Assembly (NCBI GenBank): GCA_015664425.1
Contig: DQQH01000258.1
Coordinates: forward strand, 9,359 to 73,358
DNA length: 64,000 nucleotides
Direction: 5' to 3'
Source of the DNA: Planctomycetota bacterium
GTDB lineage: Bacteria; Planctomycetota; UBA8108; UBA1146
Positions 5,199-58,726 of the stretch are shown here, one piece after another. The translations under genes were made by a program, and so were the position numbers. Each line of letters begins with the position of its first letter. Position 1 is the first letter of the stretch. The notes under the pieces were generated by a model. That model was given only the letters and a program-made list of their open reading frames with translations, did not search any database and had not been told where the DNA came from.

Positions 5199-6287
5199 AT
5201 GCAAATCCGAGAGATTTCCGTCGAAGACTACGAGAAGGTTGTCGTCGCAGAGGACAAACCCTCCGGCCTGCACGCCATCATCGCGATTCACGACACCACT
5301 CTCGGCCCTGCTCTCGGGGGTCTGAGGATGTGGAATTACGCCGATGAGGAAGAGGCGCTCAACGACGTCCTGCGCCTGGCCAAGGGGATGACCTACAAGA
5401 GCGCCTGTGCGAACACCGGCCTGGGCGGCGGCAAGGCGGTGATCATCGGGGATCCCAACAACGACAAAACAGAGGAGAGATTTCGCGCCATGGGGCGCTT
5501 TGTCGAGAGCCTTGGCGGCAAGTACATCACTGCAGAGGATGTGGGGGTTCGAATCGAGGAACTCGAGTGGATCCGCTCCGAGACGCGCTACGTGACCGGA
5601 CTCTCTCGCAAGTCCGGATCGAGCGGGAATCCGTCTCCCTTCACCGCCAGAGGCGTCATGAGGGGGTTGCGGGCCTGCGTCGAGGAGGCGTTCGGAACCA
5701 GCCGCCTCGACAACTTCCACTACGCGGTCCAGGGTCTCGGCCAGGTGGGCGGCGACGTCGCCCGGGGGCTCTCGATGCTCGGTGCCTGGGTCACCGTCAC
5801 CGACATCGATGAGAATAAACTCGAGGAGTACACCGCCCTGCCAGGGATCGAGAGTGTCCCTCTCGATGAGATCTACGATGTCGATTGCGATGTTTTCATG
5901 CCCTGCGCCCTCGGGGGTATTCTCGATGGGGAGACGATCCCCCGCCTGAAAGCCAAGGTCGTCGCCGGTTGTGCCAACAACCAGCTCCTCGGGTCCGAGG
6001 ATGGGGATCATCTCCATAAACGGGGCATCCTCTACGCCCCTGATTTCGTGATCAACGCCGGTGGAATTATCAACGTCTCGATGGAAATCCGTCCGAACGG
6101 GTACGACGAGCGACTGGCAGTGGCCCAGATCGAGAACATCTACACCGCGCTCAAGGTGATTTTCGAAACCTCCCGTCGCGATGAAGTGACGCCGACGATT
6201 GCTGCTGAGAGAGTTGCCGAAAAACGCCTGAGGGAAGCACGCGAGCGCAACGGCAAACCGGTGGCAGATTCGGCCCCGACGCCGTGA
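5199..6287 (+). CDS. ldh: Leucine (Glu/Leu/Phe/Val-family) dehydrogenase
   Basis: GGLRMWNY...KGMTYKSACANTGLGGGKAVIIGDP and the Rossmann motif VQGLGQVGG. The ATG at 5199 follows a GGGAGAGGGAG RBS; an in-frame GTG at 5193 is also possible. Confidence 0.8.
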   Translation: MQIREISVEDYEKVVVAEDKPSGLHAIIAIHDTTLGPALGGLRMWNYADEEEALNDVLRLAKGMTYKSACANTGLGGGKAVIIGDPNNDKTEERFRAMGRFVESLGGKYITAEDVGVRIEELEWIRSETRYVTGLSRKSGSSGNPSPFTARGVMRGLRACVEEAFGTSRLDNFHYAVQGLGQVGGDVARGLSMLGAWVTVTDIDENKLEEYTALPGIESVPLDEIYDVDCDVFMPCALGGILDGETIPRLKAKVVAGCANNQLLGSEDGDHLHKRGILYAPDFVINAGGIINVSMEIRPNGYDERLAVAQIENIYTALKVIFETSRRDEVTPTIAAERVAEKRLREARERNGKPVADSAPTP

Positions 6288-7519: not shown

Positions 7520-7580
7520 CCCTCACCACTTCTTCCCCTCGCAAGCCGTGGGGGTTTTCAGCAATTGAAGGAGACGGACG

Positions 7581-8030
7581 ATGACGACAATCGACCCGCG
7601 TGATGATGCGAGAAGGCTCCGCGACGGATTGCGGCGCCAGAGAGAGATCTACAGCGAACTCTACAACCTCTTCGAACAGACGCTCCTGGAGGGCGCCGAT
7701 GACCTCTTGAACTGGGTGTTCGCCAGCGAGGACGTGGTCAATCGGGCAGCAGTCGTCGACGCAGAGATCGACGAGGTCAAGGAGCGCTGGGAGACCCAGA
7801 GGAAAGATGTTCCCGACGCCCTCATCGCCGAGGTCCGTCTCGAGCGCGACCTTCTCCACCAGAACCTCCAGGACCTCCAGCGGATGCAAGAAAAGCAGTT
7901 GCAGCGCATATCGATGGGTTTCGAGGAGAAGAGCGAGAGGGTCAGAAAGGCCGAGGGACAGCGTCGGATCCAGGAGGTCTACGGTGCCTCTCCGGCGGTT
8001 TCAAACCGGTTCAGCGGCCACCTCGACTGA
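7581..8030 (+). CDS. Hypothetical coiled-coil protein (149 aa)
   Basis: A GGAGACGG RBS precedes the ATG. The sequence is charged and helical, and I recognise no family motif. Confidence 0.45.
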   Translation: MTTIDPRDDARRLRDGLRRQREIYSELYNLFEQTLLEGADDLLNWVFASEDVVNRAAVVDAEIDEVKERWETQRKDVPDALIAEVRLERDLLHQNLQDLQRMQEKQLQRISMGFEEKSERVRKAEGQRRIQEVYGASPAVSNRFSGHLD

Positions 8031-8171
8031 GTCCGTGGGAACCAGGGTGTGGCTGCCAACCCCGGAGTATCTTGCAAATGCCAGTGTGCTACCCTTCCCA
8101 GCCTGACTGACTCGCATGGCTCGACCTGGCACTGGACCTGCCAGAGGTTTCGCGGGAAGGAAGTTCTCGAA

Positions 8172-11054
8172 ATGAGCGTTGAACCCAATCCCGGAGATAA
8201 CCTCTGGGAATCGATGGGCAAGGTCGGGTTCAGGAGCGGTCCCGACGCGGCTTCTTCCGGGCCAGATCTCGAGATTCTCCCCGACGGCGGGTCCCTCGAG
8301 GGCCATCCCTACCGCAGTTTTCTCCATCGCCTTGAACGGCCGGCGAGATACACGGGGGGAGAGCTCGGAGCGGTCGAGAAGGACCGCGCCGATCTCTCGT
8401 TCCTGCTGGCGTTCCCGGACGTCTACGAGATTGGCATGAGCCACCTCGGGTTCAAGATCCTCTATAGCCATCTCAACCAGGCCGAGGGGGTTCGGGCAGA
8501 ACGGATGTATGCTCCCTGGCTCGATCTCGAGCAGGAACTCCGTTCGCGCCAATTGCCCCTCGTCAGCCTCGAGAGCTGGAGCCCGATGACAGCCTTCGAT
8601 GTGGTCGGTTTTTCCCTCCAGTACGAGCTCACCTTCACCAACGTGCTGACGATGCTTGACCTCGGCGGAGTCCCCCTCAGGAGCGCTGACCGCGATGAAG
8701 ATGCCCCGCTTGTGATGGCTGGCGGGCCATCAGCATTCCAGCCGGAGCCGATCGCTCCCTTCATCGACGCCTTCCTCATCGGCGATGGAGAGGGGTATTT
8801 CCTGGAGACGGTCCGGGAGTGGAAGCGCCTCGAGAATGAAGGTCTGTCACGTCGGGAACGCCTCATCGCCATCAGCCAGCTCGATGGTATTTACGTCCCG
8901 GCTCTCTACAGTCTGCGCCTCGAAGAGCTCACCGGCGTGCAGGTGGTCGACCGTCCCGTCGATGAGAGAGTGCCGGAGAGGATCGCGAGAGCTCATGTTG
9001 CCGACATCAACGATTTCCCTTTCCCCACCGATGGTCCCGTCCCCAACACCGAAGTCGTCTTCGACCGCTCCTCGATAGAGATTGCACGGGGTTGCACCGA
9101 GGGCTGCCGCTTCTGTCAGGCGGGAATGATCTATCGGCCGGTCCGGGAACGGAATCCCGAGGATATCAAGACGGCAGTGCGCGACTCGCTCAAGTGCGGA
9201 GGCTTCGATGAGGTCTCATTGACCAGCCTCTCGACAGCAGACTACTCGGCGATCCAGCCGCTGGTGAGCGACATCATGCCGGAATTGAGGGACCAGCGCG
9301 TGGCGCTATCGGTCTCTTCTCTCCGGGCCTACGGTCTCACCGATAAGATGCTCGATGAGATGGCTTCGGTCAGGAACACGTCTCTCACCTTCGCACCGGA
9401 GGCGGGAACTCAGCGGATGAGAGACGTCGTCAACAAGAACATCTCGGAGGAGGATATCGCCAAGAGCGCCCACCGCATCTTCTCGCGCGGTTGGCGGAAG
9501 ATGAAACTCTACTTCATGATCGGTCTGCCGTCAGAAACGGATGAAGATGTCATCGGAATTGCCGATCTCGGCAAGCGGATGCTCGACATCGCTCTCGAAT
9601 ACCTTCCCCGCGGCAGAGCGAAGGTGACCATCTCCGTTTCCAGCCACGTCCCCAAACCATTCACGCCCTTCCAGTGGGCAGCTCAGGACAACAGCGAGGA
9701 GATCGAACGCAAGCACGACATCCTCCGCCGCACGACGCGAGTCAAGGGGTTGGAACTGCGCTGGCACGATCCGAACACCTCCTTCCTCGAAGGGGTTCTC
9801 GGGCGAGGTGACAGGGTCCTCGCCGATGTGATCGAACTGGCCTGGAGAAAAGGGTGTCGATTCGATGGGTGGTCCGATCGCCTTCGTTTCGAACTCTGGC
9901 TCGAGGCGCTCGAGGAGTGCGGTATCGAGTACGAAAAATACCTTGGAACCATCCCGGTCGATGCGAGGCTTCCATGGGACCACATCGACTGCGGAGTGGA
10001 GATGGGTTTCCTTCTCAAGGAGTACCGCAGGTCACTCAAGGATCGCACCAGCCCTCCCTGCGGAAAGCCGTTCAGAAAACTGACCCACCACACCACGCTG
10101 GAGGACGCTCTCGAGGAGAAGAAGCGTCTCGTATGCTTCGACTGCGGAATCTCTTGCGACATGACCCGGATGAAAGAGGAACGCATCGGTTTCCTCGAAA
10201 AACTCGGGTCCCATCGCTCGGGGGATCGATCCAGGACGATTACCGAGGATACCCTCGACGATGTCCGCGCGGCTGGCCACAACCGCCGGAACGAGAGAGG
10301 GACCGGAGGCAAAGCGGTTCCCTCCCACGTGGACTTCCAGGATCGTCCCTACTTCAGGTACCGCCTGAGGTTCGCAAAGTTCGGGCAGGGGCGATTCATC
10401 AGCCATCTCGACCTCAACCGGATGGTGCCTCGAGCCCTCAGGCGAGCGGGGTTCGCCCCCGCATACTCCCAGGGGTTTCATCCGATTCCCAAGCTCTCCT
10501 TCGGTCCTCCCTTAAAACTTGGGCTGGCCGGATTCTCCGAAATGGTCGAGGTCAGAATCCACGATCAGGTCGATCCATCCCAGCTGGTCGAGGCGCTCAA
10601 CAGAAATCTACCCGAAGGAATCCTGATCCGTGGAGCGCACTCTGTCGGTGAGGCGGCGCCGAAACTCTCCCGCATCACCTCGTGGGCGGACTACCTCGCC
10701 TTCATTCCCGCAGACCTCGCTTCACGGATCGGCGACGATGCTCTCGGGGAGTTGCTTGCTCTCGGGGAGATCTTGATCGAGAGAACCGACAAGAAGGGAC
10801 GACTGAAAAAGGTCGATTTACGTCCAGGTATTTCGGAAATTCGCTGGCTCGACGGTATGCCTGCAGATCTCGAAGACCTCGCCGAACTGGGGAAAGATCG
10901 AAGGTTGTTGCAACTTCGCCTGGCCCTGGAGGGAATGCTGCTGGCGCGACCACAAGAGGTGCTGGCTCTTTTCCTCGACGCCCCCCTCTGCGAGGGGATA
11001 GAAATCGTAAGGCGAAGGCTGATGCCCGCTCCTGCTGCTATCGAGGTGACCTAG
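8172..11054 (+). CDS. Radical SAM protein (B12-binding-like N-domain, TIGR03960-like) fused to a DUF2344/TIGR03936-like C-terminal domain
   Basis: ERPARYTGGELGAV near the N-terminus, a CxxxCxxC cluster (GCTEGCRFCQAG), and a C-terminal RYRLRFAKFGQGRFISHLDLNRMVPRALRRAGFAPAYSQGFHPIPKLSF. The ATG at 8172 was chosen over the upstream alternative start at 8049. Confidence 0.75.
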   Translation: MSVEPNPGDNLWESMGKVGFRSGPDAASSGPDLEILPDGGSLEGHPYRSFLHRLERPARYTGGELGAVEKDRADLSFLLAFPDVYEIGMSHLGFKILYSHLNQAEGVRAERMYAPWLDLEQELRSRQLPLVSLESWSPMTAFDVVGFSLQYELTFTNVLTMLDLGGVPLRSADRDEDAPLVMAGGPSAFQPEPIAPFIDAFLIGDGEGYFLETVREWKRLENEGLSRRERLIAISQLDGIYVPALYSLRLEELTGVQVVDRPVDERVPERIARAHVADINDFPFPTDGPVPNTEVVFDRSSIEIARGCTEGCRFCQAGMIYRPVRERNPEDIKTAVRDSLKCGGFDEVSLTSLSTADYSAIQPLVSDIMPELRDQRVALSVSSLRAYGLTDKMLDEMASVRNTSLTFAPEAGTQRMRDVVNKNISEEDIAKSAHRIFSRGWRKMKLYFMIGLPSETDEDVIGIADLGKRMLDIALEYLPRGRAKVTISVSSHVPKPFTPFQWAAQDNSEEIERKHDILRRTTRVKGLELRWHDPNTSFLEGVLGRGDRVLADVIELAWRKGCRFDGWSDRLRFELWLEALEECGIEYEKYLGTIPVDARLPWDHIDCGVEMGFLLKEYRRSLKDRTSPPCGKPFRKLTHHTTLEDALEEKKRLVCFDCGISCDMTRMKEERIGFLEKLGSHRSGDRSRTITEDTLDDVRAAGHNRRNERGTGGKAVPSHVDFQDRPYFRYRLRFAKFGQGRFISHLDLNRMVPRALRRAGFAPAYSQGFHPIPKLSFGPPLKLGLAGFSEMVEVRIHDQVDPSQLVEALNRNLPEGILIRGAHSVGEAAPKLSRITSWADYLAFIPADLASRIGDDALGELLALGEILIERTDKKGRLKKVDLRPGISEIRWLDGMPADLEDLAELGKDRRLLQLRLALEGMLLARPQEVLALFLDAPLCEGIEIVRRRLMPAPAAIEVT

Positions 11055-11077
11055 AGGCCCGAATCTACAGGAGGATA

Positions 11078-11314
11078 TTACCCGCAATCATTTCCGATCG
11101 CTTCGACGGGACATTCCTCCATCGCCTGTTCGCAGAGCTCTTCTTCCTCAGGATTTTTGGGCTGCTTGAAAACGTATGAATAACCCTCGTCCTCGTTCGC
11201 TCGGAAATTGTCGGGCGCGGTCGTGCGACAGAGGTCGCAATCGATGCATTCATGGTCCACGTACCATTTACCCTCGACATTTGATTCGACCTTGTTTTCA
11301 GGATCAGCCATCAT
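11078..11314 (-). CDS. Small ferredoxin (78 aa)
   Basis: CIDCDLC...CPVEAI motif. The internal ATGATG start at 11314 was chosen; the 205-aa ORF upstream of it has no coding character. Confidence 0.7.
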   Translation of the reverse strand: MMADPENKVESNVEGKWYVDHECIDCDLCRTTAPDNFRANEDEGYSYVFKQPKNPEEEELCEQAMEECPVEAIGNDCG

Positions 11315-11567
11315 GATTCTCCCGGAGTTGTCGACAGTCCGTGGCCCTCTCTGCAGCGATCTCTCCTCGCGGGCGATTGCCAGGAGGTCCGAGATAGAGA
11401 ACCAGGTGGTCGAGAGTATAGAGGGGGATGACCATCTGGCAAGGGCTGCAAGGAAGGGAATCGGTTCCCATCGGTTGGTCTCGGTGGCGGACAGTTCCTC
11501 CCTTGGGTATCTTCGCACCTCGCGCTCGAATTGGGACCGGTTCAAAGGTCGATAGAGAAGGACTCCG

Positions 11568-12398
11568 ATGAAGGTCACCATCGCACATAGCCCCGATTCC
11601 GATGACGCGTTCATGCACTTCGCCATCGGCGAGGGAAAAATCGATACCGGCGAATACCAGTTCGAACATCTGCTGAAGGACATCGAATCCCTCAACCTCG
11701 CGGCTCGGGAGGGAATCTACGAGGTCACTGCGATCTCGATTCATGCTTATGCCCATCTTGCCGACCGTTACGCGCTTCTCAACCACGGAGCGAGTATGGG
11801 TGAGGGGTACGGCCCCGTGGTGGTGGCGTCTCGACCCTTGACTCGCGATGATCTCGAGGGGCGAACGATTGCCATCCCCGGGGAGTGGACCAGCGCTGCC
11901 CTGTGCCTGAAGTTGTGGCTTCCGGAGGCGAAGACGATTCCTGTTGCCTTCGATGAGATCATTCCGACGATTCAGCGGGGGGACGTCGATGCTGGGGTGA
12001 TCATCCACGAGAGCCAGCTCACCTACGGAGATGAGGGCATGCACGCGATCGTTGACCTGGGAGTCTGGTGGGCAGAGGGGAACGAGGGCCTACCTCTCCC
12101 CCTGGGAGGAAATGCGATCCGTCGCGATCTCGGGGAGCACCACATCGGTAACATCTCGAGGATTTTGCGCGAGTCGATCGTCTATGCCCTCGAGCATCGG
12201 GATGAAGCCCTCGAGTACGCAGAGTGTTTCAACCGTGGGCTCACCCGGGAGCAGACGGATCGTTTCGTTGGCATGTATGTGAACCGACGGACCCTCGACT
12301 ATCGGGAAGACGGTCGCGAGGCTGTGCGTCGTTTCCTTCGCCTAGGTGTTGCCCAGGGACTGGTCCCGGAAGTGGCGGCACCGGAGTTCATCGACTAG
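11568..12398 (+). CDS. MqnA/MqnD-family (futalosine-pathway menaquinone biosynthesis-like, periplasmic-binding-fold) protein
   Basis: N-terminal IAHSPDSDDAFMHFAI...LKDIESLN...YEVTAISIHAY...LLNHGASMGEGYGPVVVA matches my recollection of the PF02621 pattern. Confidence 0.55.
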   Translation: MKVTIAHSPDSDDAFMHFAIGEGKIDTGEYQFEHLLKDIESLNLAAREGIYEVTAISIHAYAHLADRYALLNHGASMGEGYGPVVVASRPLTRDDLEGRTIAIPGEWTSAALCLKLWLPEAKTIPVAFDEIIPTIQRGDVDAGVIIHESQLTYGDEGMHAIVDLGVWWAEGNEGLPLPLGGNAIRRDLGEHHIGNISRILRESIVYALEHRDEALEYAECFNRGLTREQTDRFVGMYVNRRTLDYREDGREAVRRFLRLGVAQGLVPEVAAPEFID

Positions 12399-48787: not shown

Positions 48788-50845
48788 ATGGAAGAGAGAC
48801 CGAAAGACCACCACGACGGGGACAGCGAAGGCCCTCCTGAAGCACCCCGCTGGACCCAGCGCCCCTGGTTCTGGTTCATGGTTCTGTTGCTGCTCGTCAT
48901 GACAGTGATGAACTACATCGGCAGCGATATCGAGAGGTCCTCTTCTGAGGGAAATTTCACCCTCCTGGTCGAGCAGATCCGTAACGGAAACGTCGAGCAG
49001 ATCAAGGAACTGGAGTCGAGCTACTTCCTGGCGAAGTTGCGTCAGGAGATACAGATTCCCGTTCAGGGTGATTTCGACGGGGAGGAACTCATTTCAGCGA
49101 GTTCGATTCGGGTGGTGATCAAGGGAGACGCCCTGCTCGAGAAGATCTCGAATGCCTGCGATGAGAAGAATACCCCTCTCGAATTACGGAGCACTGCCAG
49201 CGAATTCTGGGCGGTGATCTTTGGCAGTCTCCTGCCGATCCTTATCCTTGTTCTCTTCTTCTGGTTCATTAGCAGCCGGGTCCGCAGGCAGATGGGGCCG
49301 GGGATCTTCGGGAAGTTCTCAGGGAACCGAGCGAAGAGATTCGACGCCGACGGGGATCTGGTCACCTTTGAAGAGGTTGCTGGATTGCGCAACGTCAAGA
49401 AGGAACTCCAGGAGATTGTTGACTTCCTCCGGACCCCGGAAAAATACACCCGATTGGGGGCGAAGATTCCCAAGGGGGTGTTGCTGATCGGACCACCGGG
49501 GACTGGGAAGACACTTCTCGCCCGGGCCGTTGCAGGAGAAGCGGGGGTTCCCTTCTTTTCCATATCGGGATCGGAGTTCATCGAACTGTTCGTTGGCGTC
49601 GGTGCCTCTCGAGTCAGAGAACTCTTCGAGGAGGCGAAGAAGAACGCTCCCTGCATTATCTTCATCGATGAGATCGATGCTGTTGGAAGGTCGAGAGGTG
49701 CGGGTCTCGGTGGCGGTCACGACGAACGTGAGCAGACTCTCAACCAGATACTTTCGGAGATGGATGGTTTCGAGACCCATCAGGCGGTGATCGTACTGGC
49801 GGCGACCAATCGCCCCGATGTCCTCGATGCTGCTCTTGTCAGACCTGGCCGATTCGACCGTCAAGTGGTTGTCGAACGCCCGCAAAAAGAGGGCCGCCGT
49901 GCGATTCTGAAGGTCCACACCCGCCAGATTCCTCTCCATGATGACGTCGACCTGGAAGCGGTTGCCAGGGGGACGATTGGATTCTCGGGGGCAGACCTCG
50001 AGAACCTTGCCAATGAAGCGGCGCTGAATGCAGCCCGAGAAAACAAGAACATCATCACCAAGGAAGATTTCGACACGGCGAAGGACAAGATTCTCCTCGG
50101 GACCCTTCGCGATGAGACTCTCAGCGAGAAGGAACGCAAACTCACCGCCTTCCACGAGGCGGGGCATGCGCTCCTCGCCATGCTTCTGCCAGGCGCTGAC
50201 CCTGTTCATTCAGTCACCATCGTCCCACGAGGGCGGGCGCTCGGGGTAACTCAGCAACTTCCAGCCGAGGAGATCCACAGTTATTCGCGGACCTATCTGA
50301 TGAATCGGATCGTAATTCTCCTCGGAGGCCGTGCTGCGGAGGAGATCGTCTTCAATGAGTCGACCACCGGTGCCGAGAACGATCTCGAGCAAGCAACGAA
50401 GCTGATCGAGCGGATGATCTGCCGCTGGGGCATGAGTGAGAAGGTCGGTCCCATCTCCTATCGCCGTGGGGAGGAGCAGGTCTTCCTCGGCCGGGAGATC
50501 GGCGAGGGGCGGCATCTCAGCGAGCAAACATCGAACCTGATCGATGAGGAGATTCGCGCTTTCATGGAGAAAGGGCACCAGGAGGCGCTGAAATTGCTGC
50601 GAGGGGAACGAGAGCGCCTCGACAAGCTGGCGAACGAGCTCCTCGAAAAAGAGGTCCTCACCGACAGGGAGATCTACCAACTCCTCGAGATCGAGTTGCC
50701 TCCATCTCTGGCAGAGGAAGAGGGGGAAGGGTCTCCATCAACAGAGGGTGGCAAATCCACGGAATCCTCGGCTGAAAAGGAGGTTGACCCCTCCGCTGCC
50801 GACGAGGGGCTCGATCCGGGCATGCTGGGCCTCGAGGGGGCATAG
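48788..50845 (+). CDS. ftsH: ATP-dependent zinc metalloprotease FtsH
   Basis: Two TM helices, Walker [12 protein letters not shown], and the Zn motif HEAGHAL. Confidence 0.95.
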
Positions 50846-51092
50846 AGGGGAGACCCCCTTTTCATATGGGCGCTCCTGTTGTCACAATGGCGGCGGGAGA
50901 GGCAGGGCCGTGGCGACGGTTGTTGCGGATCCGCCTCGGGGTGACATGATCGGCCGATTCTCACCTCTACCGGATGGCGAGCGACCACGATCTCACGTGG
51001 CCCCAAGCCGCCGAACCGGCTCGTTTTCCGAAGACGATCCGCCTTCACCGTCTCAACAACGAGATTCAGATTGCAGGCGTCGTTGCCTCGGG

Positions 51093-52718
51093 ATGATGAA
51101 ACTCGATGGACTCCTCCAACAAAGGGCCCTGGGAGAAGTCAACCCGACCGAGAGCATTTCTCTGCTCAGATGCCTCGACCGCCTCGGCACGGAGCCTGTC
51201 GATGGGTGGTCCTTGCTCCTCCCGGGAGGGGTTCATTCCCTGTTGCGTGGATTCGTTCGCCTGACCCATCTGCTCTCGAGCCTCCACGCAGGTGGGGTAC
51301 CGGTGGTCGCACTTCTCCCGCGAGCGGTCAGGGTTCGTTCGGGAGGTGAACTCGATCTTGACGCCGAACAGCTGGAGAGGGTGATTCCGAGGGACCTCGA
51401 TCAGGCGGCACCCTCCCTCGCGCCGGAGGTCCTTCTCGATCCTCGGGGGGGACATCTCGGAGAACCCCAGGCGGTCTATGCCGTCGCTGCGTTGCTCCAC
51501 CGTTGTCTCGCAGGAACTCCACCCTGGGGGGGACGGAATGCGGCGGAAGTCGCCGATCGAATTCTCACCGGGTCTCCACCCAGCGATTCCTTTTCCGCAG
51601 GCAATCTCCCCCCGGGCCTGGGCCCATTGCTCAGGGATGCGTTGCACCTCGACCCTGCTGCCCGACCGGCAACCCTGCGCGGCTTTGCATCGATGCTCGA
51701 ATCGGTGACGATGGGAGGTCGACCACGGGCGGAGGTCGCCCGTCGCCTGACGAACCAGCGCCAGCCCCACGCTCCCTGGGGTCCGATCCTGCTCGTGGCG
51801 GCGATCCTCATCTTCGCTCTGGCAGCCTTTCGCCGCTCATCTGTCGAGGATGAGATCCACCGGGTTGCCGACCGGCTGTGGTCGGTGATGGCTGTCCGGC
51901 CCCTGCCGATGCTGGGAGAAGATCCTCCGACCCATGCCCTGGCCGGAGTGGTTCTGCGCTCCGAAGAACACCATATCGGGGCTCTCGGCGATGATCCCCG
52001 CCTGCTCCTCTCTCTCGCCTGGGCGCAGATCAGGGCTGGGCACTACGAGAGCGCCGTCAGGAGCGCCCGACGTGTTCTCCTCTACGGCCCACGGGCTGCC
52101 GGAGCCTGGGTGACCATCGGAATCGCTCGCCTGGAGATGGGGGATGAGGGTGGGTTGATGGAGTTGAGGCGAGGTCTGGGCATGACCGCAGAGGGCGAGG
52201 AGCAGCGCTGGTTGCAGGTCGCGGGGCACTTCTACCTTCTCGAGTTCGATGCTGCTGCAGCGGGCTTCGAGCGCTGGACCCGCGACCACCCGAGGGACTT
52301 TTCCGGCTGGCTCCACCTTGCACTCTCGACCTATCGAGCGGGGAGGGTGGAGAGCGCCAGCAAGGCTCTGACCCAAGCGCAGCGCCTGCGTCCCCATGAC
52401 CCCTGGGTTGAGTGGTTGAGGGCGGAGATCCTCCTGGCCACCGGCGATGCGCCAGGGGCCATCCTGGTGGTCGATCGCAGCAAGACAGCCTGGGTCCGGC
52501 AACCCGCGCTTCTCCTGCGAGGTGGGGACCTCCTTCGCCGTCTCGGGGAGGAGGAGGGGGGAGAGGACTGGATTCAGCGTGCTATCGAGGAGTACGGAGA
52601 TCCCGAAGCAAGCCACTGGTTGGAGGAAAAAGCCTCGAAACCGCCGTTTTCTGCGCCCTCTCCCCCTCTCGAAGAAGTTCCTGAACATCCGGCGAATAGA
52701 AGCGTCTCGGATCCGTAG
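51093..52718 (+). CDS. Membrane protein with a degenerate protein-kinase C-lobe-like N-domain (pseudokinase), one TM helix and C-terminal TPR repeats (start uncertain; alternative ATG at 50946)
   Basis: APE-like SLAPEVLL...AVYAVAALLHRCLAGTPPW...DALHLDPAARP resembles kinase subdomains VIII-XI. I see no Gly-loop, VAIK or HRD motifs. The TM helix is ILLVAAILIFALAAF, followed by TPR-like helical repeats. Confidence 0.5.
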   Translation: MMKLDGLLQQRALGEVNPTESISLLRCLDRLGTEPVDGWSLLLPGGVHSLLRGFVRLTHLLSSLHAGGVPVVALLPRAVRVRSGGELDLDAEQLERVIPRDLDQAAPSLAPEVLLDPRGGHLGEPQAVYAVAALLHRCLAGTPPWGGRNAAEVADRILTGSPPSDSFSAGNLPPGLGPLLRDALHLDPAARPATLRGFASMLESVTMGGRPRAEVARRLTNQRQPHAPWGPILLVAAILIFALAAFRRSSVEDEIHRVADRLWSVMAVRPLPMLGEDPPTHALAGVVLRSEEHHIGALGDDPRLLLSLAWAQIRAGHYESAVRSARRVLLYGPRAAGAWVTIGIARLEMGDEGGLMELRRGLGMTAEGEEQRWLQVAGHFYLLEFDAAAAGFERWTRDHPRDFSGWLHLALSTYRAGRVESASKALTQAQRLRPHDPWVEWLRAEILLATGDAPGAILVVDRSKTAWVRQPALLLRGGDLLRRLGEEEGGEDWIQRAIEEYGDPEASHWLEEKASKPPFSAPSPPLEEVPEHPANRSVSDP

Positions 52719-52788: not shown

Positions 52789-53412
52789 ATGAAATTCCTG
52801 AGAACCCTGTTCCTTCTCGTTTCTGGTGGCCTGCTGGTCACCGCCCCGGGCACCGTCGAAGGCGCTCCTGGGAACTCGGCGGGGCGAGACAAAAAGGCCG
52901 CTGTGGAAAAGGTGTCCCTGTTGCGGAGCGTCAGGGGGGTGACTCCTCTGCGCACGACCGCTGTGACCCGGAACAAGCGGGCGGTGACCCCCCGGCGCGT
53001 GGTGACGAAGACGCGCTCCAAGAGGACCGTTGTTCCGCTCTCGACGAGGCATTTCCGAGGCAGTATCGATCGTGTTGGCACGGTTCGCTGCAGGCGTAAC
53101 AATCACGTACATGAGTTCCTGCAGGGTGTCAGATTCTTCAATCGTGGCCTCCAGTGCTTCCGAAGGCTCTCCTGCGGGCGGGTGGAGTTTTATCTGCCCG
53201 GCCACTACGAGATGGTTTCGCGGGAAATCATCGAGCCTGGTCGCTGGAAGTACCTGAATACCCGGGTTGCTTTGCCGGTATTCGGCTGTTTCCCGGGCCT
53301 TCTGCGGACACAGCGAAATAGGGTCTGGATCGCGCCGAGAATCCGTGTGGTGACCGAACGCTGCTGGGTTCCGGGAGCCTGGGTCGAAACCCACTCCCTC
53401 CATGTTTCCTGA
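52789..53412 (+). CDS. Secreted basic Cys-containing hypothetical protein (weak WxxGxW-repeat resemblance)
   Basis: Signal peptide MKFLRTLFLLVSGGLLVTAPGTVEGA, an Arg/Lys/Thr/Val-rich repeat region (VTPLRTTAVTRNKRAVTPRRVVTKTRSKRTVVP), and a C-terminal CWVPGAWVE. Confidence 0.5.
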   Translation: MKFLRTLFLLVSGGLLVTAPGTVEGAPGNSAGRDKKAAVEKVSLLRSVRGVTPLRTTAVTRNKRAVTPRRVVTKTRSKRTVVPLSTRHFRGSIDRVGTVRCRRNNHVHEFLQGVRFFNRGLQCFRRLSCGRVEFYLPGHYEMVSREIIEPGRWKYLNTRVALPVFGCFPGLLRTQRNRVWIAPRIRVVTERCWVPGAWVETHSLHVS

Positions 53413-53456: not shown

Positions 53457-53825
53457 GCAGAAGCCCTTGATCCAGATCATGGGATCTCATAGGCTGCCGA
53501 CGCAACGCGGGGCGCCAGGCCGAAGTACGCCGCCTGTCTGGGGTCTCGAAAGGGGAATGGGTCTCGGGTTCTCCGCACCTTGTTGTTCCACCTCGCCTCT
53601 CGTGGATCCGAAATCACCGAAAATCTGAATTCAGGCAGCGCCTCAGTTTTGCGTGTTGCCTCAAGTGGTGCATCCTGGCCAGGGGGGAATGGGGATGGCA
53701 GGAGACCCGATCTGGACCGCTCCCACCCCGTCCACAATTGAAATCAAGGAGCCAATGGCCTGTCCGTCCCTACGCTTTCCATGGGCAGGTTCCTCCATTT
53801 CCTCGTTTATTTCAGACCCAAACTC

Positions 53826-53858
53826 CTCCTCACCGAGTAGGGACGGTGAGGAGATTTT
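53826..53858 (+). terminator. Orphan terminator-like hairpin inside a ~650-bp ORF-poor spacer (possible sRNA 3' end or leader attenuator)
   Basis: CTCCTCACCG-AGTAGGGA-CGGTGAGGAG, a perfect 10-bp stem followed by ATTTT. Confidence 0.4.
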
Positions 53859-54064
53859 CGTAGGCAATAGGGGCCGTTCGGCAGTCAGCTGGGGAGACCG
53901 TCCAGGCGCCCTCGGCGGCGTTACAACGCTCCCTCGCCTCAGGACAGCGCCTCTTCCGTAACCTCTCCCCTTCCCGCAACTTTTCTTTACACCCCCAATT
54001 GGCCGCGCTAGTATTACCGTCACGAATCAATACGGTTTATTGGAAGTGAGGAGGTTTCGTGGGG

Positions 54065-57000
54065 ATGACCCGTGAGGAACCGATCGACATGACACCGCAG
54101 GATGCTGAGGATCGGGGCCTCTCACCCGACCGGAACGAGATCCTCGATGAACTCGAGGATCTGATCCGCTGCGCTCTCCTCGCCGAGAGAGGCCAGGGAA
54201 GCGGCGTTGCCCTTGTCCTGGTTCGTGGTGCCAGTGGCCAGGGGAAAAGCCGCCTCGTCGAGGACCTCCTCGAACGCCTCGGAGATGAACGTCCTCTCTT
54301 CCAGGAGGTGGAGTGTCACGAGCGCCAGGGGATTCCCTTCCTGCCGGTGCTCCGTTTGATCAAGAACCTCATCGTATCCAGTCTCGCCCCGCGGGAGTTG
54401 TGGAGAAAATACGCTCACGTTCTGACCCGGGTATTCCCTGAACTGGTGGAGCAACTCGGAGGAGCCATGCCCCCCGATCCTCTGCCCGGGGAGGATGGTC
54501 GGATCCAGTTCCATCAGGCTCTCACCAGTATCCTCCTCGAGTTGGCTGCGGAGAGACCGCTTCTACTGGCGATCCACGACATCCATCGCTGTGATCGGGG
54601 GACGATCGAGTTCATCACATTTCTCGCTCGCAACGTGTTCCTCTCGACCGGCGGCCAACGCTCCGAGGTCGATGCGTCCGCTGGTTCAGAGGAGGGTTCC
54701 CGGGAGTGGAAGCAAATTCACACCCGTGAAGGTCGCGATGGGAAATCGGTCTCGGAGTTCCTCGAATCGGATGAGGGCTCCACCTCCGAGGGGTCTCCGG
54801 GTGCCAGGATCCAGATCGTCGTCAATTACACCTCAAAGGACAGCGCTGCTCGCCTCGCCGGGGAAACGGACGAGGTCCTCGCCTCCCTCGGGCGCCTGGC
54901 AAAGGAGCCCTTCTCGCGGCATTTTGATCTGCCTCCCCTGATGCCTGGCGATCTGGCACAGATGGTCGAGACGGAGGTCGAAGCCCGCTGCGAGCCGGGA
55001 CAGATCGAGAGGGTGTACGAGGCCACCGGAGGCAACCCGCTGCGCGCCCTCGACCTCTGTCGTCTGGTGTCGGAGAGTGGCGGGAACTGGCGGCTTCTCG
55101 ACGACATCTTGCCGGCGATACTCCCGAAAGGAGCGAGTTCTGCTCAGGAGCAGCTGGGGCGTGGCGTCTTCATGAGGCGTCTTGCCTCCTTGCCTGCCCT
55201 ACAGGTGATGGTGCTTCGTTACCTGGCGCTTCTCCGTCGCCCCGCCGATGCCGTCTTCATCGGTGAGGCCTGTCAAAGTGACCCCCAGATCCTCGATGAA
55301 GCCTTGCTGGAACTGACCGATCGAGGGTTCATCCGCTCGCGTCAGGTTCGCAACCTGTCTCGCTTTCACATCGGACATGAGGACCATCTGCGCTGGATTC
55401 GCAGAGGGATCGAGCCCTCCGAAGCCCGACGCTTACAGGGAGATCTGGGACGGATTCTGGCGGAAGATCCACGCGCGAGTGAGCCGGTCAGATCGTTCGA
55501 GATCTACGAGCAGTTGCGGGCTGCAGGTCAACTCGAGGAGTGTAGGGGCCATGGGTTTTCGGCGTTCCGCTTCTTCTCCAGCGCTTACGCCGAGCACCTC
55601 GCAATCCGGGTTGGCCGTGAACTGATCGACTCCCTCGGGGCCGACGGTGATCCGGAGATGCGTCACGACGTGCTGATGGAACTCATCGAGCTGGAGATGG
55701 GGACCGGCCAGCAGGAACTTGCCAAGGCCCACGCCAAGTCCCTCATCGAGGATCCAGAACTGCCGGCTGGCCCGCGTCTCGAGGGGCTGCTCCTCCTCGC
55801 CGAGATTTACTGCCAGCTGGGTGAACCCCTCAAGGGGATCAAGGCCCTCAACCGAGTGCCACGGGAGACGGTGGCGACGGTGGGGGGGCTCTCCGAGGCG
55901 CGCATCACAACAAAGCGCGCACGTCTCCGCCTCGAGCGCCGGGATTTCAAGCGTGCGATCAGCCTCTGCCTGCGGGGCCTCAAGGAACTCGAAGGCACCG
56001 CTGAAGAGCCAGTTCATCTCTCATTGCGTGCCGATCTTCTCGAGTTCCTTTCCGAGGCGCACCTTCGTCGAGGAGAGACCGTCTCGGCCCTGAACCACTA
56101 CCAGTCCCTGCTCGAACTGGTCGAGGGGCTCGGAGATGATGTCCGCCTCTCCTCGGTGCTGAGGACCCTGAGCCGGGTCTACTACGATCGAGGAAATCAT
56201 TTCCGCTCCGCTCGATACCTCTTCCGTGCACTCGAGGTGATCGAGCGCACACGCGATTTCCGCGCTCTGGCCTCCACCTACGAACTCCTCGGCAAGGTCT
56301 ACCGGAATTCAGGCGATTTCCCTCGCAGCCTGGAACACTTCCGACTCAGCTTGCGCCTCCGGGAAAAGATTGGTGATGCGAAACTTCTGTCACCGACGCT
56401 CAATTCCATCGGCAGTCTGCATTCCCACAACGGTGATTACGCTCGTGCCATCCGCTATTTCAAGCGCAGCGTGACCAACAGCGAACGGTTCGGCAGCACC
56501 GATGGAATCGTCCGCTCCTTCCTCCATCTTGGCTGGGTCTTTCACGAGTTGGGCGAACGCAAGCAACTGGAGAGTCTTTGCCGACAGGTGCTGATTCTCT
56601 CCCAGGAGTTCGATCTCCTCGATCTGGAAGCAGAAGGCCACCGGCTCGCAGGAAGCCTCGCCTTCCTCAGGGGGGACTTGAAGAACTCCGAGAAGGAATT
56701 CCGGCGCTCCCTGGAAATCGCCCAGAAGAGAGGAATGACCAAACTCGCAGCTGCCAGCCACCTCGACCTGGCTGCCCTCGAGCAGAAGCGCGAGCGATAC
56801 GAAGCTGCCCTCAAACTGGTCAGCCGGGGAATACTCCAGGCTGAAGAGATCCAGTCGATCCCGTTCCAGGTCAGGGGATTGCTTCTCAAGGGAGAGATTT
56901 CCCGCCATCTCCGCGGTGGCAGCCCAGAACGGACCCGGGAGTGCTACGAGAAGGCGGTCACCCTGGTCTCCGGGGAGACGCTGATGCCGTTGCAGTGGTC

Positions 57001-58429
57001 CCTCTTCTATGCCATGGCTCGCCTCCACCAGACGACGATGGAGGTTGCCGAAGCGCGGCGCTCTTATGACCGTGCGGATCAGATCATCGAACGCATCTCT
57101 TCTCGTCTTCCCGAGGATATGCGGGTCGTCTTCAGAGACGATCGCCGCAGGAAGAACTTCTTCACCGACCTCCAGAGGTTCCGCAAGGAGTCGAGCGAAC
57201 TGGTCACGGTGGAGACCATTTCTCAGGAAGGAAAGGAGGTGACCGGAGAGCGGCCACTCTCTGACTCCGCCGCTGGGCCGGATGGCGATGGCCTCCTCGT
57301 TCGGTTCTTGCCGGTGATCGACCGCCTGGCGATCGCTGAGGATCTGGCGACCTTCTTCCACAGTCTTCTCGAAGAAGCGCGTCGGCTGGTTCCCTCTCCT
57401 CGGGGTTTCATCCTCGAGAGGATCGGTTCGCGCTGGAAGGTGTTTTCCGAGATCGACATGGGTCAGAAGGAGTCGTGGGCGGTCGATGACAGCTTGCCCG
57501 GGGCAATCTCTCTCCTCACCATCGACCGGGATCAGGTGCTTCGTTCCGGTGGCGAGGAGTGGATGAAACTGGTCGAGGACTCCCAGGAAGGGTCCAGTTA
57601 CAAGGGCCGCTCGATGATGGCGATCCCGGTTAAGTTGCCCGACAGGTTTTCAGGGGTTCTTGTTCTGGAGCGTCCCACCGCTGGCAACCCCTTCCAGGAA
57701 GAGGACGGAGATCACCTTCTACAGCTGCTCCGGGTGCTCGGAGGGCAGTTTCGTGCCCTCGTAGCCGGTGACAGTCTCGCTCGCTTCGAGCGGACCTCCA
57801 TCCTCACTCCGAGTGGCTTCGAGGCGAACCTCGGTTACCTCCTCGAGAAGCAGAAGCGCGACAAGGTCCCCCTGGGAGCGATCGAGATGGTGATCCCGGG
57901 GTTGGATCATTTGATACGCCAGCGCACCGGAGAAGAAATCGTCGACAGGTTCAGCGATCTGGCCGGACCTGGTGTCGTTCATTGCCTCCGTCCAGCGGGA
58001 GACCGATACGTCTTCCTTTATCTGGGGCGAAGCCTCGAAGACCTCCAGCAGAAATCCCGGGATCTGGGCCACAGGATCTCCGAACTTCGGGAAGGTGTGG
58101 GTCTGGCCGATCGTTGCGAGATCGACATTTTTGTACACCACATGCCCCTGGACGACAGCGGTCTCGATGGGCTCCGCCGGGCCGGTGCGGGGTATTTCTG
58201 TTCGGGCGAGGTCCCACAGATCGAGAGCGAAGTCGCGACCCTCACCGGCGGGGGTATCTCATTGAAAGAAGCGAAAAGGGCCCTGGAGAAGCGTTACATC
58301 GTCTCCGCCCTGCACAAGAGCGAAGGTAACGTCACCCATGCTGCCGAGGCGTTGGGGATGCACCGCCCGCAGCTTTCCAACCTGTTGAAACGCCATGGCA
58401 TTCGCAGGGAAGACTTCGAGCGCTCCTGA
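54065..58429 (+). CDS. Giant multidomain regulator: AAA_16/STAND-type NTPase + TPR array + GAF-like domain + degenerate GGDEF-like domain + C-terminal Fis-type HTH
   Basis: Walker A GASGQGKS and Walker B LLLAIHDIHRCD are present, followed by many TPR-like repeats (...YYDRGNHFRSARYLFRALEV...). A GAF-like block (RSMMAIPVKLPDRFSGVLVLERP) comes next. The GGDEF-like block has AGDRY in place of GGDEF (HCLRPAGDRYVFLYLG). The HTH_8 motif is EKRYIVSALHKSEGNVTHAAEALGMHRPQLSNLLKRHGI. The ATG at 54065 follows a GAGGAGG RBS. Confidence 0.7.
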   Translation: MTREEPIDMTPQDAEDRGLSPDRNEILDELEDLIRCALLAERGQGSGVALVLVRGASGQGKSRLVEDLLERLGDERPLFQEVECHERQGIPFLPVLRLIKNLIVSSLAPRELWRKYAHVLTRVFPELVEQLGGAMPPDPLPGEDGRIQFHQALTSILLELAAERPLLLAIHDIHRCDRGTIEFITFLARNVFLSTGGQRSEVDASAGSEEGSREWKQIHTREGRDGKSVSEFLESDEGSTSEGSPGARIQIVVNYTSKDSAARLAGETDEVLASLGRLAKEPFSRHFDLPPLMPGDLAQMVETEVEARCEPGQIERVYEATGGNPLRALDLCRLVSESGGNWRLLDDILPAILPKGASSAQEQLGRGVFMRRLASLPALQVMVLRYLALLRRPADAVFIGEACQSDPQILDEALLELTDRGFIRSRQVRNLSRFHIGHEDHLRWIRRGIEPSEARRLQGDLGRILAEDPRASEPVRSFEIYEQLRAAGQLEECRGHGFSAFRFFSSAYAEHLAIRVGRELIDSLGADGDPEMRHDVLMELIELEMGTGQQELAKAHAKSLIEDPELPAGPRLEGLLLLAEIYCQLGEPLKGIKALNRVPRETVATVGGLSEARITTKRARLRLERRDFKRAISLCLRGLKELEGTAEEPVHLSLRADLLEFLSEAHLRRGETVSALNHYQSLLELVEGLGDDVRLSSVLRTLSRVYYDRGNHFRSARYLFRALEVIERTRDFRALASTYELLGKVYRNSGDFPRSLEHFRLSLRLREKIGDAKLLSPTLNSIGSLHSHNGDYARAIRYFKRSVTNSERFGSTDGIVRSFLHLGWVFHELGERKQLESLCRQVLILSQEFDLLDLEAEGHRLAGSLAFLRGDLKNSEKEFRRSLEIAQKRGMTKLAAASHLDLAALEQKRERYEAALKLVSRGILQAEEIQSIPFQVRGLLLKGEISRHLRGGSPERTRECYEKAVTLVSGETLMPLQWSLFYAMARLHQTTMEVAEARRSYDRADQIIERISSRLPEDMRVVFRDDRRRKNFFTDLQRFRKESSELVTVETISQEGKEVTGERPLSDSAAGPDGDGLLVRFLPVIDRLAIAEDLATFFHSLLEEARRLVPSPRGFILERIGSRWKVFSEIDMGQKESWAVDDSLPGAISLLTIDRDQVLRSGGEEWMKLVEDSQEGSSYKGRSMMAIPVKLPDRFSGVLVLERPTAGNPFQEEDGDHLLQLLRVLGGQFRALVAGDSLARFERTSILTPSGFEANLGYLLEKQKRDKVPLGAIEMVIPGLDHLIRQRTGEEIVDRFSDLAGPGVVHCLRPAGDRYVFLYLGRSLEDLQQKSRDLGHRISELREGVGLADRCEIDIFVHHMPLDDSGLDGLRRAGAGYFCSGEVPQIESEVATLTGGGISLKEAKRALEKRYIVSALHKSEGNVTHAAEALGMHRPQLSNLLKRHGIRREDFERS

Positions 58430-58528: not shown

Positions 58529-58726
58529 TCAGTTGCAGTTGAAATCGTGTGCGCGGACGGTCTTGCGACCGTTGGCGCCGGCACGGCTTGCAGCCTGCTG
58601 GATGTACCAGTGGATGACTTCGTTGAGACCGTCAAGGGCGTCACCACCCACGTTGACCCCGTGACCCTTGAGGGCAGCCTTGGCCTTGCTGCCGACCAGG
58701 AGCATCTCCTTCGTCTGAGTGTTCAT
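58529..58726 (-). CDS. Singlet histone-fold DNA-binding protein (bacterial histone-like, 65 aa)
   Basis: MNTQTKEMLLVGSKAKAALKGHGVNVGGDALDGLNEVIHWYIQQAASRAGANGRKTVRAHDFNCN. The ANGRKTVRAHD block matches the archaeal histone signature (HMfB ...AGRKTIKAEDI...). The helix-loop-long-helix-loop layout and size fit a single histone fold. An alternative start at 58765 adds 13 aa. Confidence 0.65.
   Translation of the reverse strand: MNTQTKEMLLVGSKAKAALKGHGVNVGGDALDGLNEVIHWYIQQAASRAGANGRKTVRAHDFNCN

Follow-up and report, generated by a model that had tools for sequence, protein, structure and literature searches.

In a 64,000-nt stretch of contig DQQH01000258.1 of a Planctomycetota bacterium (hereafter the window), an uninterrupted open reading frame (ORF) on the forward strand extends from position 54059 to 58429. 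Translation from the ATG at position 54065, preceded by GGAGG at a distance of about 10 nt, results in a protein of 1,454 amino acids (aa). From the N- to the C-terminus, this protein consists of an AAA_16/STAND NTPase domain, an array of tetratricopeptide repeats (TPR), a GAF domain, a domain with GGDEF fold and a Fis-type helix-turn-helix (HTH) domain of the HTH_8 family. It aligns end to end with 18 full-length relatives, and when one genome of each GTDB species was scanned, 32 loci were found to encode the same full-length protein with 40–50% identity. On these grounds an assembly or frameshift error can be dismissed as the origin of the gene, and the merger of two genes, which an initial annotation of the sequence had considered, is not borne out. 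The gene is real and intact and encodes a very large putative regulator.

The domains were mapped with Pfam and NCBIfam. Pfam AAA_16 was matched with 61.3 bits (cut-off 32.6). The Walker A motif GASGQGKS comprises residues 55 to 62 (positions 54227–54250) and the Walker B motif was identified as LAIHDIHRCD (positions 54566–54595), in which D172 is invariant in the alignment. The family-wide form of Walker A is GxxGxGK[ST], kept in all subfamilies except for protein P0020 (K to R), whereas the form of Walker B is hhhHDLHxxD, with HD where DD is usual. The motif GGNPL, which we take to be the GxP-type motif located behind the NTPase domain of STAND proteins, is present in most family members according to a regular-expression check. 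Since Walker A, Walker B and GNPL are kept in all subfamilies, the NTPase domain is under selection. The TPR array was found to be the best-conserved part of the protein in the alignment of the window protein and its orthologues (19 sequences). Of the helical and winged-helix region expected behind a STAND NTPase, the sequences show the GGNPL motif and, in P0121, a weak match to MarR_2 at residues 399–448. With NCBIfam, only partial matches were obtained for the window protein, namely to the AAA_16 part of a TOMM kinase/cyclase model and to the HTH ends of NtrC-family regulators.

The Pfam GAF model, matched by the window protein just over its cut-off, was also matched by 8 of 14 orthologues with a best E-value of 2.4e-12. 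The region following the GAF domain was assigned by structure. Pfam GGDEF (PF00990) gave no match at E ≤ 1 in the window protein and was touched by only two of the 14 orthologues (E 0.02). Matches to GGDEF proteins in sequence-profile searches of the PDB were marginal (E 0.086–1.2) and insufficient alone; the GGDEF protein 3ezu was found at E 0.13 with a profile of the C-terminal half and at E 0.086 with a profile of the domain only. An AlphaFold model of residues 1070–1454, built with 14 family sequences, reached a mean predicted local distance difference test (pLDDT) score of 83.4. The best PDB match of this model in Foldseek was the GAF-GGDEF cyclase Dcsbis (4zmu; E 8.5e-10, 344 columns), followed by phytochrome-GGDEF cyclases and PelD, while isolated GAF domains were matched as well (e.g., 3trc with a target-normalised template modelling score of 0.69). 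In the predicted structure, the segment between the GAF domain and the HTH clearly has a GGDEF fold.

An hhalign comparison with the bona fide GGDEF domain at the N-terminus of P0112 (RRSD...RYGGDEF) gave an E-value of 4.8e-5 and provided a residue map. LRPAGDRY aligns with YRYGGDEF, GPGV stands at the position of the RxxD inhibitory site (I-site; RRSD in P0112), and Gly1279 is found in place of the first metal-binding Asp (DxD motif). The KSVNDGF segment with the guanine-binding Asn is deleted in the window domain. In AGDRY, the Glu of the fourth position is replaced by Arg, and this Glu was found in no orthologue; the signatures of the orthologues are GGDHL, GGDSY, GGDRY, GGDHY, SGDRY and AADHL, and those of the distant subfamilies (groups B and C, see below) are WGNPIL, WWNPVL, LGDSVV and IGDRVM. 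The I-site position reads EPNF, QPIH or EPDR in the orthologues, with RxxD absent from every one. Judged by these residues, the GGDEF domain is catalytically dead and also devoid of the canonical inhibitory or receptor site for cyclic di-GMP (c-di-GMP). The initial annotation had taken the domain as presumably inactive and as a possible sensor or receptor; the inactivity stands, whereas a role as sensor or receptor finds no support with respect to c-di-GMP, since both the I-site and the guanine-binding residues are absent.

At the C-terminus, HTH_8 (PF02954) was matched with 34.1 bits (cut-off 22), and PDB profile matches were obtained to the HTH regions of NtrX (5m7n) and FleQ (8p53). The HTH is the best-conserved segment across the subfamilies (consensus LKEAKxxLE...GNITxAAxxLGxHRPQLSxLxKK) and nearly invariant, although the proteins are otherwise only about 25% identical, as expected for a DNA-reading head. 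Neither the LuxR-type HTH (GerE) nor, at E ≤ 1, Sigma54_activat (PF00158) was matched by Pfam in the window protein, and the motifs GAFTGA and GE[ST]GxGK are absent from it. Only about 170 residues lie between the GAF domain and the HTH.

A profile of the dead GGDEF domain and the HTH was searched against 1.84 billion representative proteins. The whole module was found in only about nine clusters of proteins of 1,430–1,530 aa. Many other long proteins were retrieved via the HTH alone; these were sorted by Pfam scans and a local profile search. None of the long HTH_8 proteins with a dead GGDEF domain carries GAFTGA or the sigma-54 Walker A motif, whereas all but one of the 22 without it carry both (the exception, P0168, has neither). 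In the class with the sigma-54 motor, GAFTGA and GESGTGK are present and the dead-GGDEF stretch is absent. The dead GGDEF domain holds the position of the sigma-54 AAA+ motor in the sister proteins, which implies that the protein acts independently of sigma-54. A search with a wide GGDEF and HTH alignment gave mostly short gene fragments and was unhelpful for estimating the size of the family.

The motifs GASGQGKS, LAIHDIHRCD and AGDRY were all located where the initial annotation had placed them. Its description of a STAND P-loop with a long TPR array agrees with the Pfam AAA_16 and TPR matches and the motif checks, and that of GAF-like and GGDEF-like modules with an AGDRY signature before a Fis-type HTH is confirmed by Pfam, the predicted structure and the profile alignment. 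The proposed lack of a sigma-54 AAA+ core likewise held: neither the Pfam family nor GAFTGA was found, and the intervening segment is GGDEF-folded in the model.

The search for orthologues, which had also been proposed, yielded full-length members in 32 species-level metagenome-assembled genomes (MAGs), with one locus per genome. Named members are all labelled as MAG Planctomycetota, Planctomycetes or Planctomycetia bacterium and a few bins carry other labels; the family appears to be confined to the Planctomycetota, under which nearly all of the MAGs are filed. More distant subfamilies, among them group B (P0133, P0142, P0144–P0147 and P0154) and group C (P0134, P0137 and P0140), show the order AAA_16-TPR-GAF followed by a stretch of about 170 aa without Pfam family and then HTH_8, again without GAFTGA or the sigma-54 Walker A motif. 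This stretch aligns with the dead GGDEF domain of the window protein and opens with the GGDEF-like sequence EPLTGFxTPxYF; the stretch of P0142 matches Pfam GGDEF with an E-value of 0.0018. The architecture is thus common to several deep subfamilies.

A distant homologue with 29% identity, P0020 (locus L004, positions 7540–11880), has the AAA_16-TPR-GAF order and the dead GGDEF domain without a Fis-type HTH. This is the protein with the Lys-to-Arg exchange in Walker A; the RNA element described below is still found 320 nt upstream of its gene, in a non-syntenic locus.

The product names in databases are only 'tetratricopeptide repeat protein' or 'hypothetical protein', and literature searches on combinations of the domain names retrieved no description of the architecture, in line with the earlier suggestion that the domain order lies outside any described class. 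Taken singly, STAND regulators of transcription, degenerate GGDEF adaptors and heads of the Fis type are familiar; their combination, the family and the linked RNA are absent from the searched literature, Pfam, NCBIfam and Rfam.

Table 1. Features of the regulator locus (positions refer to the window unless a locus is named).
Feature	Position	Strand	Evidence
Regulator gene, STAND-TPR-GAF-degenerate GGDEF-HTH_8	54065..58429	+	Single ORF, upstream GGAGG, full-length orthologues of 1436-1491 aa
AAA_16/STAND NTPase domain, residues 36-190	54170..54634	+	Pfam AAA_16 E 2e-16, verified motifs
GGNPL motif, residues 322-326	55028..55042	+	19-sequence alignment: G323 and N324 invariant, P325 and L326 nearly so
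TPR array, residues ~575-1010, presumed sensor/scaffold arm	55787..57094	+	TPR_12 E 2e-26, TPR_MalT E 3e-11, other TPR models
GAF domain, residues 1093-1228	57341..57748	+	Pfam GAF 22.8-25.8 bits, just over cut-off
Degenerate GGDEF-fold domain, residues ~1243-1380	57791..58204	+	AGDRY (57995-58009) at the GGDEF position
Fis-type HTH_8, residues 1406-1443	58280..58393	+	Pfam E 2e-8
Conserved structured RNA, ~110 nt	53752..53862	+	Covariance model, covariation, no Rfam match
Sigma-70-like promoter TTTACA-17-TAGTAT	53986..54014	+	Consensus scan: 1 site vs 0.1 expected
Palindrome CCGTCACGAATCAATACGG (CCGT-N11-ACGG), candidate operator	54017..54035	+	Downstream copy of the pair, retained in the window
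Histone-fold (DUF1931) protein, 65 aa, convergent	58529..58726	-	PDB 9qt0 E 4e-10; Bdellovibrio HBb 8cmp E 4e-4
ECF sigma and zf-HC2 anti-sigma pair	L004 4897-5999; L157 5630-7072; L158 4633-5718	-	Upstream of RNA and regulator

A k-mer scan upstream of 29 orthologues revealed non-coding sequence that is conserved above the level of the protein. An alignment of 22 copies folds into two hairpins: P1 with the loop UCCCUAC, a conserved linker UCCUCGUUUAUUUCAGACCCAAAC, and P2 with the loop GUAGGGA followed by a U-run. Together with the helix between the two loops, 99.6% of the cells in this alignment pair and 10 pairs are compensatory, compared to 41–50% paired cells in slid controls. With 43 hits, 98.9% of the cells pair and 13 pairs are compensatory (slid controls 40–50%), and covariation was observed at 7 of 9 pairs in P1 and at 5 of 9 in P2. 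The UCCCUAC/GUAGGGA helix between the loops hardly varies, apart from one compensatory pair and one G·U. The forward strand was assigned on the basis of conserved G·U pairs. P2 is terminator-like (positions 53826–53853 in a terminator scan of the window), and its U-run has a length of 7–9 U in group B.

With the covariance model, exactly one copy was found per locus with enough upstream sequence, always on the strand of the regulator and with 62 to 124 bits; these matches include loci outside the set used to build the model. Coordinates were determined at L001–L036, L043–L113, L157 and L158, and the group B locus L157 and the group C locus L158 carry the element as well. In a pattern scan of metagenomes, 12 of 80 stretches were true copies according to the covariance model and the rest were chance matches; all copies with a long enough flank lie upstream of a window-clade or group B regulator. 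In every case examined across the regulator superfamily, the RNA precedes the regulator gene on the same strand. The distance between the two is 150–230 nt in most window-clade loci and in L157, and three genes lie between them in L002. Between positions 53300 and 54150 of the window, Rfam gave no match at E ≤ 1 on either strand.

As a sigma-70-like promoter stands between the RNA and the ATG, the RNA may be a separate small transcript in the window. It could be either an attenuating leader or an adjacent small RNA (sRNA). A pairing of the 5′ arm of P2 with the Shine-Dalgarno sequence of the regulator was considered and dropped, since inspection by eye showed no covariation of the complementary segments in the L014 clade. 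Upstream of the RNA, no promoter motif common to the clades was found, only a −10-like TAGATAT in group B. Short, clade-specific tandem repeats were observed nearby: GGATTCCACTGTGC (three times, L010, about 5665–5710) and AGTTTTTTTGCCAC (three times, L019/L025, about 5690–5750) just upstream of the RNA element, and repeats of GAGGAACTCAGTGTTT (L016, about 5760–5865) just upstream of the start codon of the regulator.

The promoter-like block CTTTACGG-N17-GATAGCCT is conserved ahead of the orthologous genes, in the region around −100 to −40 relative to the start codon. Two CCGT-N11-ACGG palindromes, 43 bp apart, enclose the promoter in most window-clade loci, and in L158 one copy precedes the group C gene by 214 nt. 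A palindrome of 19 bp fits a dimeric Fis-type HTH, which makes autoregulation a reasonable assumption and the palindrome a candidate autoregulatory operator.

Most window-clade loci with long enough flanks share one order of genes: those for 2-oxoacid dehydrogenase and FtsH come first, followed by a TPR-protein gene, one for a small protein, the regulator, a short convergent gene and a FadJ-like gene. The pair upstream of the regulator had been described as a pseudokinase and a secreted protein. It does stand beside FtsH in most loci, whereas the kinase label is based on one weak partial Pkinase match (E 0.038, C-lobe only) in what is a TPR protein (50748–52718, forward strand); the second gene (52789–53412, forward strand) encodes a 207-aa protein with a signal-peptide-like N-terminus and no Pfam family. 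In L002, five genes stand between this pair and the regulator. The histone-fold neighbour, also proposed earlier, is real and conserved: the protein is 71–86% identical across loci, its gene lies directly downstream of the regulator in about 28 orthologous loci, and it adjoins the regulator even where five genes are inserted upstream. The two genes are arranged tail to tail and are thus not co-transcribed, and their adjacency may reflect general collinearity.

For groups B and C and for P0020, the upstream neighbour is a divergent pair of an extracytoplasmic function (ECF) sigma factor and a zf-HC2 anti-sigma factor, which is absent from the corresponding position in the window clade. The downstream genes in groups B and C are of the envelope or exopolysaccharide type (a PEP-CTERM protein, an ATP-binding cassette exporter, an epimerase and glycosyltransferases). 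In several subfamilies (L020, L027, L028, L034, L035, L002, L043, L062, L067, L113 and L158), a gene for a YihY/BrkB-family membrane protein of 445–522 aa, in the same orientation as both, separates the RNA element from the regulator; the window clade is without this gene at that position. This arrangement suggests an ancestral RNA-brkB-regulator unit.

The protein shares features with several known systems. MalT and the LAL regulators of E. coli and actinomycetes likewise combine an N-terminal STAND/AAA_16 NTPase, a long helical-repeat arm (TPR_MalT is matched here) and a C-terminal HTH, and the presumed logic is similar, with inducer and ATP leading to oligomerisation and DNA binding. In contrast to the window protein, their HTH is of the LuxR type; here it is HTH_8, a GAF and a dead GGDEF domain are inserted, and Walker B contains HD instead of DD. 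Rv0386-type mycobacterial proteins likewise join a cyclase-fold domain to a STAND NTPase, TPR and an HTH within a single chain; their cyclase, however, is N-terminal and an active class III enzyme, and they have a LuxR-type HTH. Many cyclase-AAA_16-TPR proteins were found among the remote matches of the window protein.

Uncharacterised proteins of the order (kinase-)AAA_16-TPR-(GAF)-Sigma54_activat-HTH_8 (e.g., P0039, P0102, P0078, P0081 and P0093) share the STAND-TPR(-GAF) start and the HTH_8 end, and their HTHs were retrieved by the family profile. They differ in having a sigma-54 AAA+ domain with GAFTGA in place of the dead GGDEF domain; the two never occur together in the long proteins checked (one has neither).

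For the GAF-GGDEF part, the best overall structural match are the Dcsbis/PA2771 cyclases, which have a similar helical GAF-GGDEF linker; these are active enzymes with GGEEF or GGDEF and an I-site, both of which the window domain has lost. PelD of P. aeruginosa has a comparable tandem of GAF and inactive-cyclase GGDEF domains and is a structural match, but its intact RxxD I-site binds c-di-GMP, and it is membrane-anchored and without NTPase, TPR or HTH. In LapD and FimX, which have degenerate GGDEF domains, the receptor is the adjacent EAL domain, whereas the window protein contains no EAL.

Taken together, we consider it probable, with moderate confidence, that the protein is a sigma-54-independent, MalT-like STAND transcription regulator in which the GAF and the dead GGDEF domain couple the sensor to the HTH. 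An ATP-dependent switch like that of MalT is suggested by the conservation of the NTPase motifs, by a repeat arm of the MalT type and by the HTH at the C-terminus. The AAA_16 NTPase would keep the protein closed, with nucleotide bound. Once the TPR arm, the GAF domain or the two together sense a signal, nucleotide exchange and self-association would become possible, and self-association would gather the C-terminal Fis-type HTHs on palindromic DNA. There they could activate or repress sigma-70-type promoters, probably including that of the regulator itself. The dead GGDEF domain would produce no c-di-GMP and would probably not bind it in a known way.

The GAF-GGDEF pairs of real cyclases work as dimers via a helical linker. 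In the window protein, the pair directly precedes a head that must dimerise, and the former active site is not conserved between subfamilies; for these reasons we infer that GAF and dead GGDEF form a dimerising signal-coupling module, as in the cyclase pairs and in the dead GGDEF domain of LapD.

Some observations weigh against this interpretation. The N-terminal module is classified as STAND by Pfam AAA_16 and its motifs, and a single-sequence PDB search with the N-terminal 562 residues gave chance flavodoxin matches only. The palindromes could bind another protein, and every member of the family originates from uncultured MAGs. Furthermore, the top conserved polar residues of the dead GGDEF domain in the window clade (E1274, P1278-G1279, D1281, R1287 and G1312-D1313) map to the former active-site half, so that a non-canonical ligand or metal site may have been retained.

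The last point leads to the main rival explanation, a receptor transcription factor for c-di-GMP or another nucleotide, in which the degenerate GGDEF domain, with or without the GAF domain, would bind the nucleotide and thereby control the HTH; PelD and PopA would be the models, except that the output here is DNA binding. The clustering of E1274, D1281, R1287 and D1313 in the old active-site half speaks for it. We nevertheless regard it as unlikely: the RxxD I-site used by PelD, PopA and the cyclases is missing in every orthologue, the guanine-binding KxxND segment is deleted, and the signature residues differ wholly between subfamilies (GGDHL, WGNPIL, LGDSVV), which leaves no family-wide site. 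A related and broader proposal is that the regulator and the RNA form one Planctomycetota-wide module in which the kissing-loop RNA is a new ligand-sensing attenuator of the regulator operon or an sRNA controlled by the regulator and the dead GGDEF domain keeps a non-canonical nucleotide or metal site (E1274, D1281, R1287, D1313), jointly representing a new class of second-messenger-responsive STAND transcription factors with an RNA partner. This combination is speculative and, as a whole, improbable.

Defence systems often contain STAND NTPases with TPR sensors, and the same combination here might indicate an Avs-like anti-phage protein with the HTH as effector or sensor. This explanation was rejected as very improbable on the basis of PADLOC and synteny. 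PADLOC gave no defence family beyond generic TPR and HTH matches, and no nuclease, protease or other toxic effector domain was detected by Pfam. The gene occurs once per genome in the 32 MAGs, in a stable neighbourhood of mostly conserved housekeeping genes (FtsH, 2-oxoacid dehydrogenase, FadJ-like) and not in a variable island, which argues for a core regulator and not for a mobile defence gene.

A fusion of an active diguanylate cyclase with a DNA-binding domain would fit the GGDEF fold and the retained third signature residue (Asp1313), but it is hardly credible given the Arg in AGDRY at the place of the fourth-position Glu, the Gly at the first DxD Asp, the missing guanine-binding segment and the lack of a Pfam GGDEF match at E ≤ 1. 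A cryptic sigma-54 enhancer-binding protein with an AAA+ core too diverged for Pfam, for which the similarity of the HTH_8 to NtrC-family HTHs and the existence of the Sigma54_activat sisters could be cited, is practically refuted by the assignment of the roughly 170 residues between GAF and HTH to a GGDEF instead of an AAA+ fold in the model, and by the absence of GAFTGA and GESGTGK.

With regard to annotation, this degenerate GGDEF domain is invisible to Pfam, and the protein is consequently labelled only as a TPR protein. The linked RNA provides a testable handle on the family and is worth considering for Rfam and in screens for riboswitches or sRNAs; we consider it the most promising lead. 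STAND transcription ATPases are known with LuxR-type heads (MalT, LAL) or SARP heads (AfsR), and Fis-type heads are the textbook partners of sigma-54 AAA+ motors. The regulator described here would represent a third arrangement, in which a STAND switch drives a Fis-type head through an adaptor of GAF and dead GGDEF domains. The sigma-54 motor at the same position in the sister proteins points to a natural domain swap between two modes of ATPase-driven transcription control. The family seems to provide a core regulator, present in single copy, to a widespread group of uncultured and largely marine Planctomycetota, in which regulation has hardly been studied.

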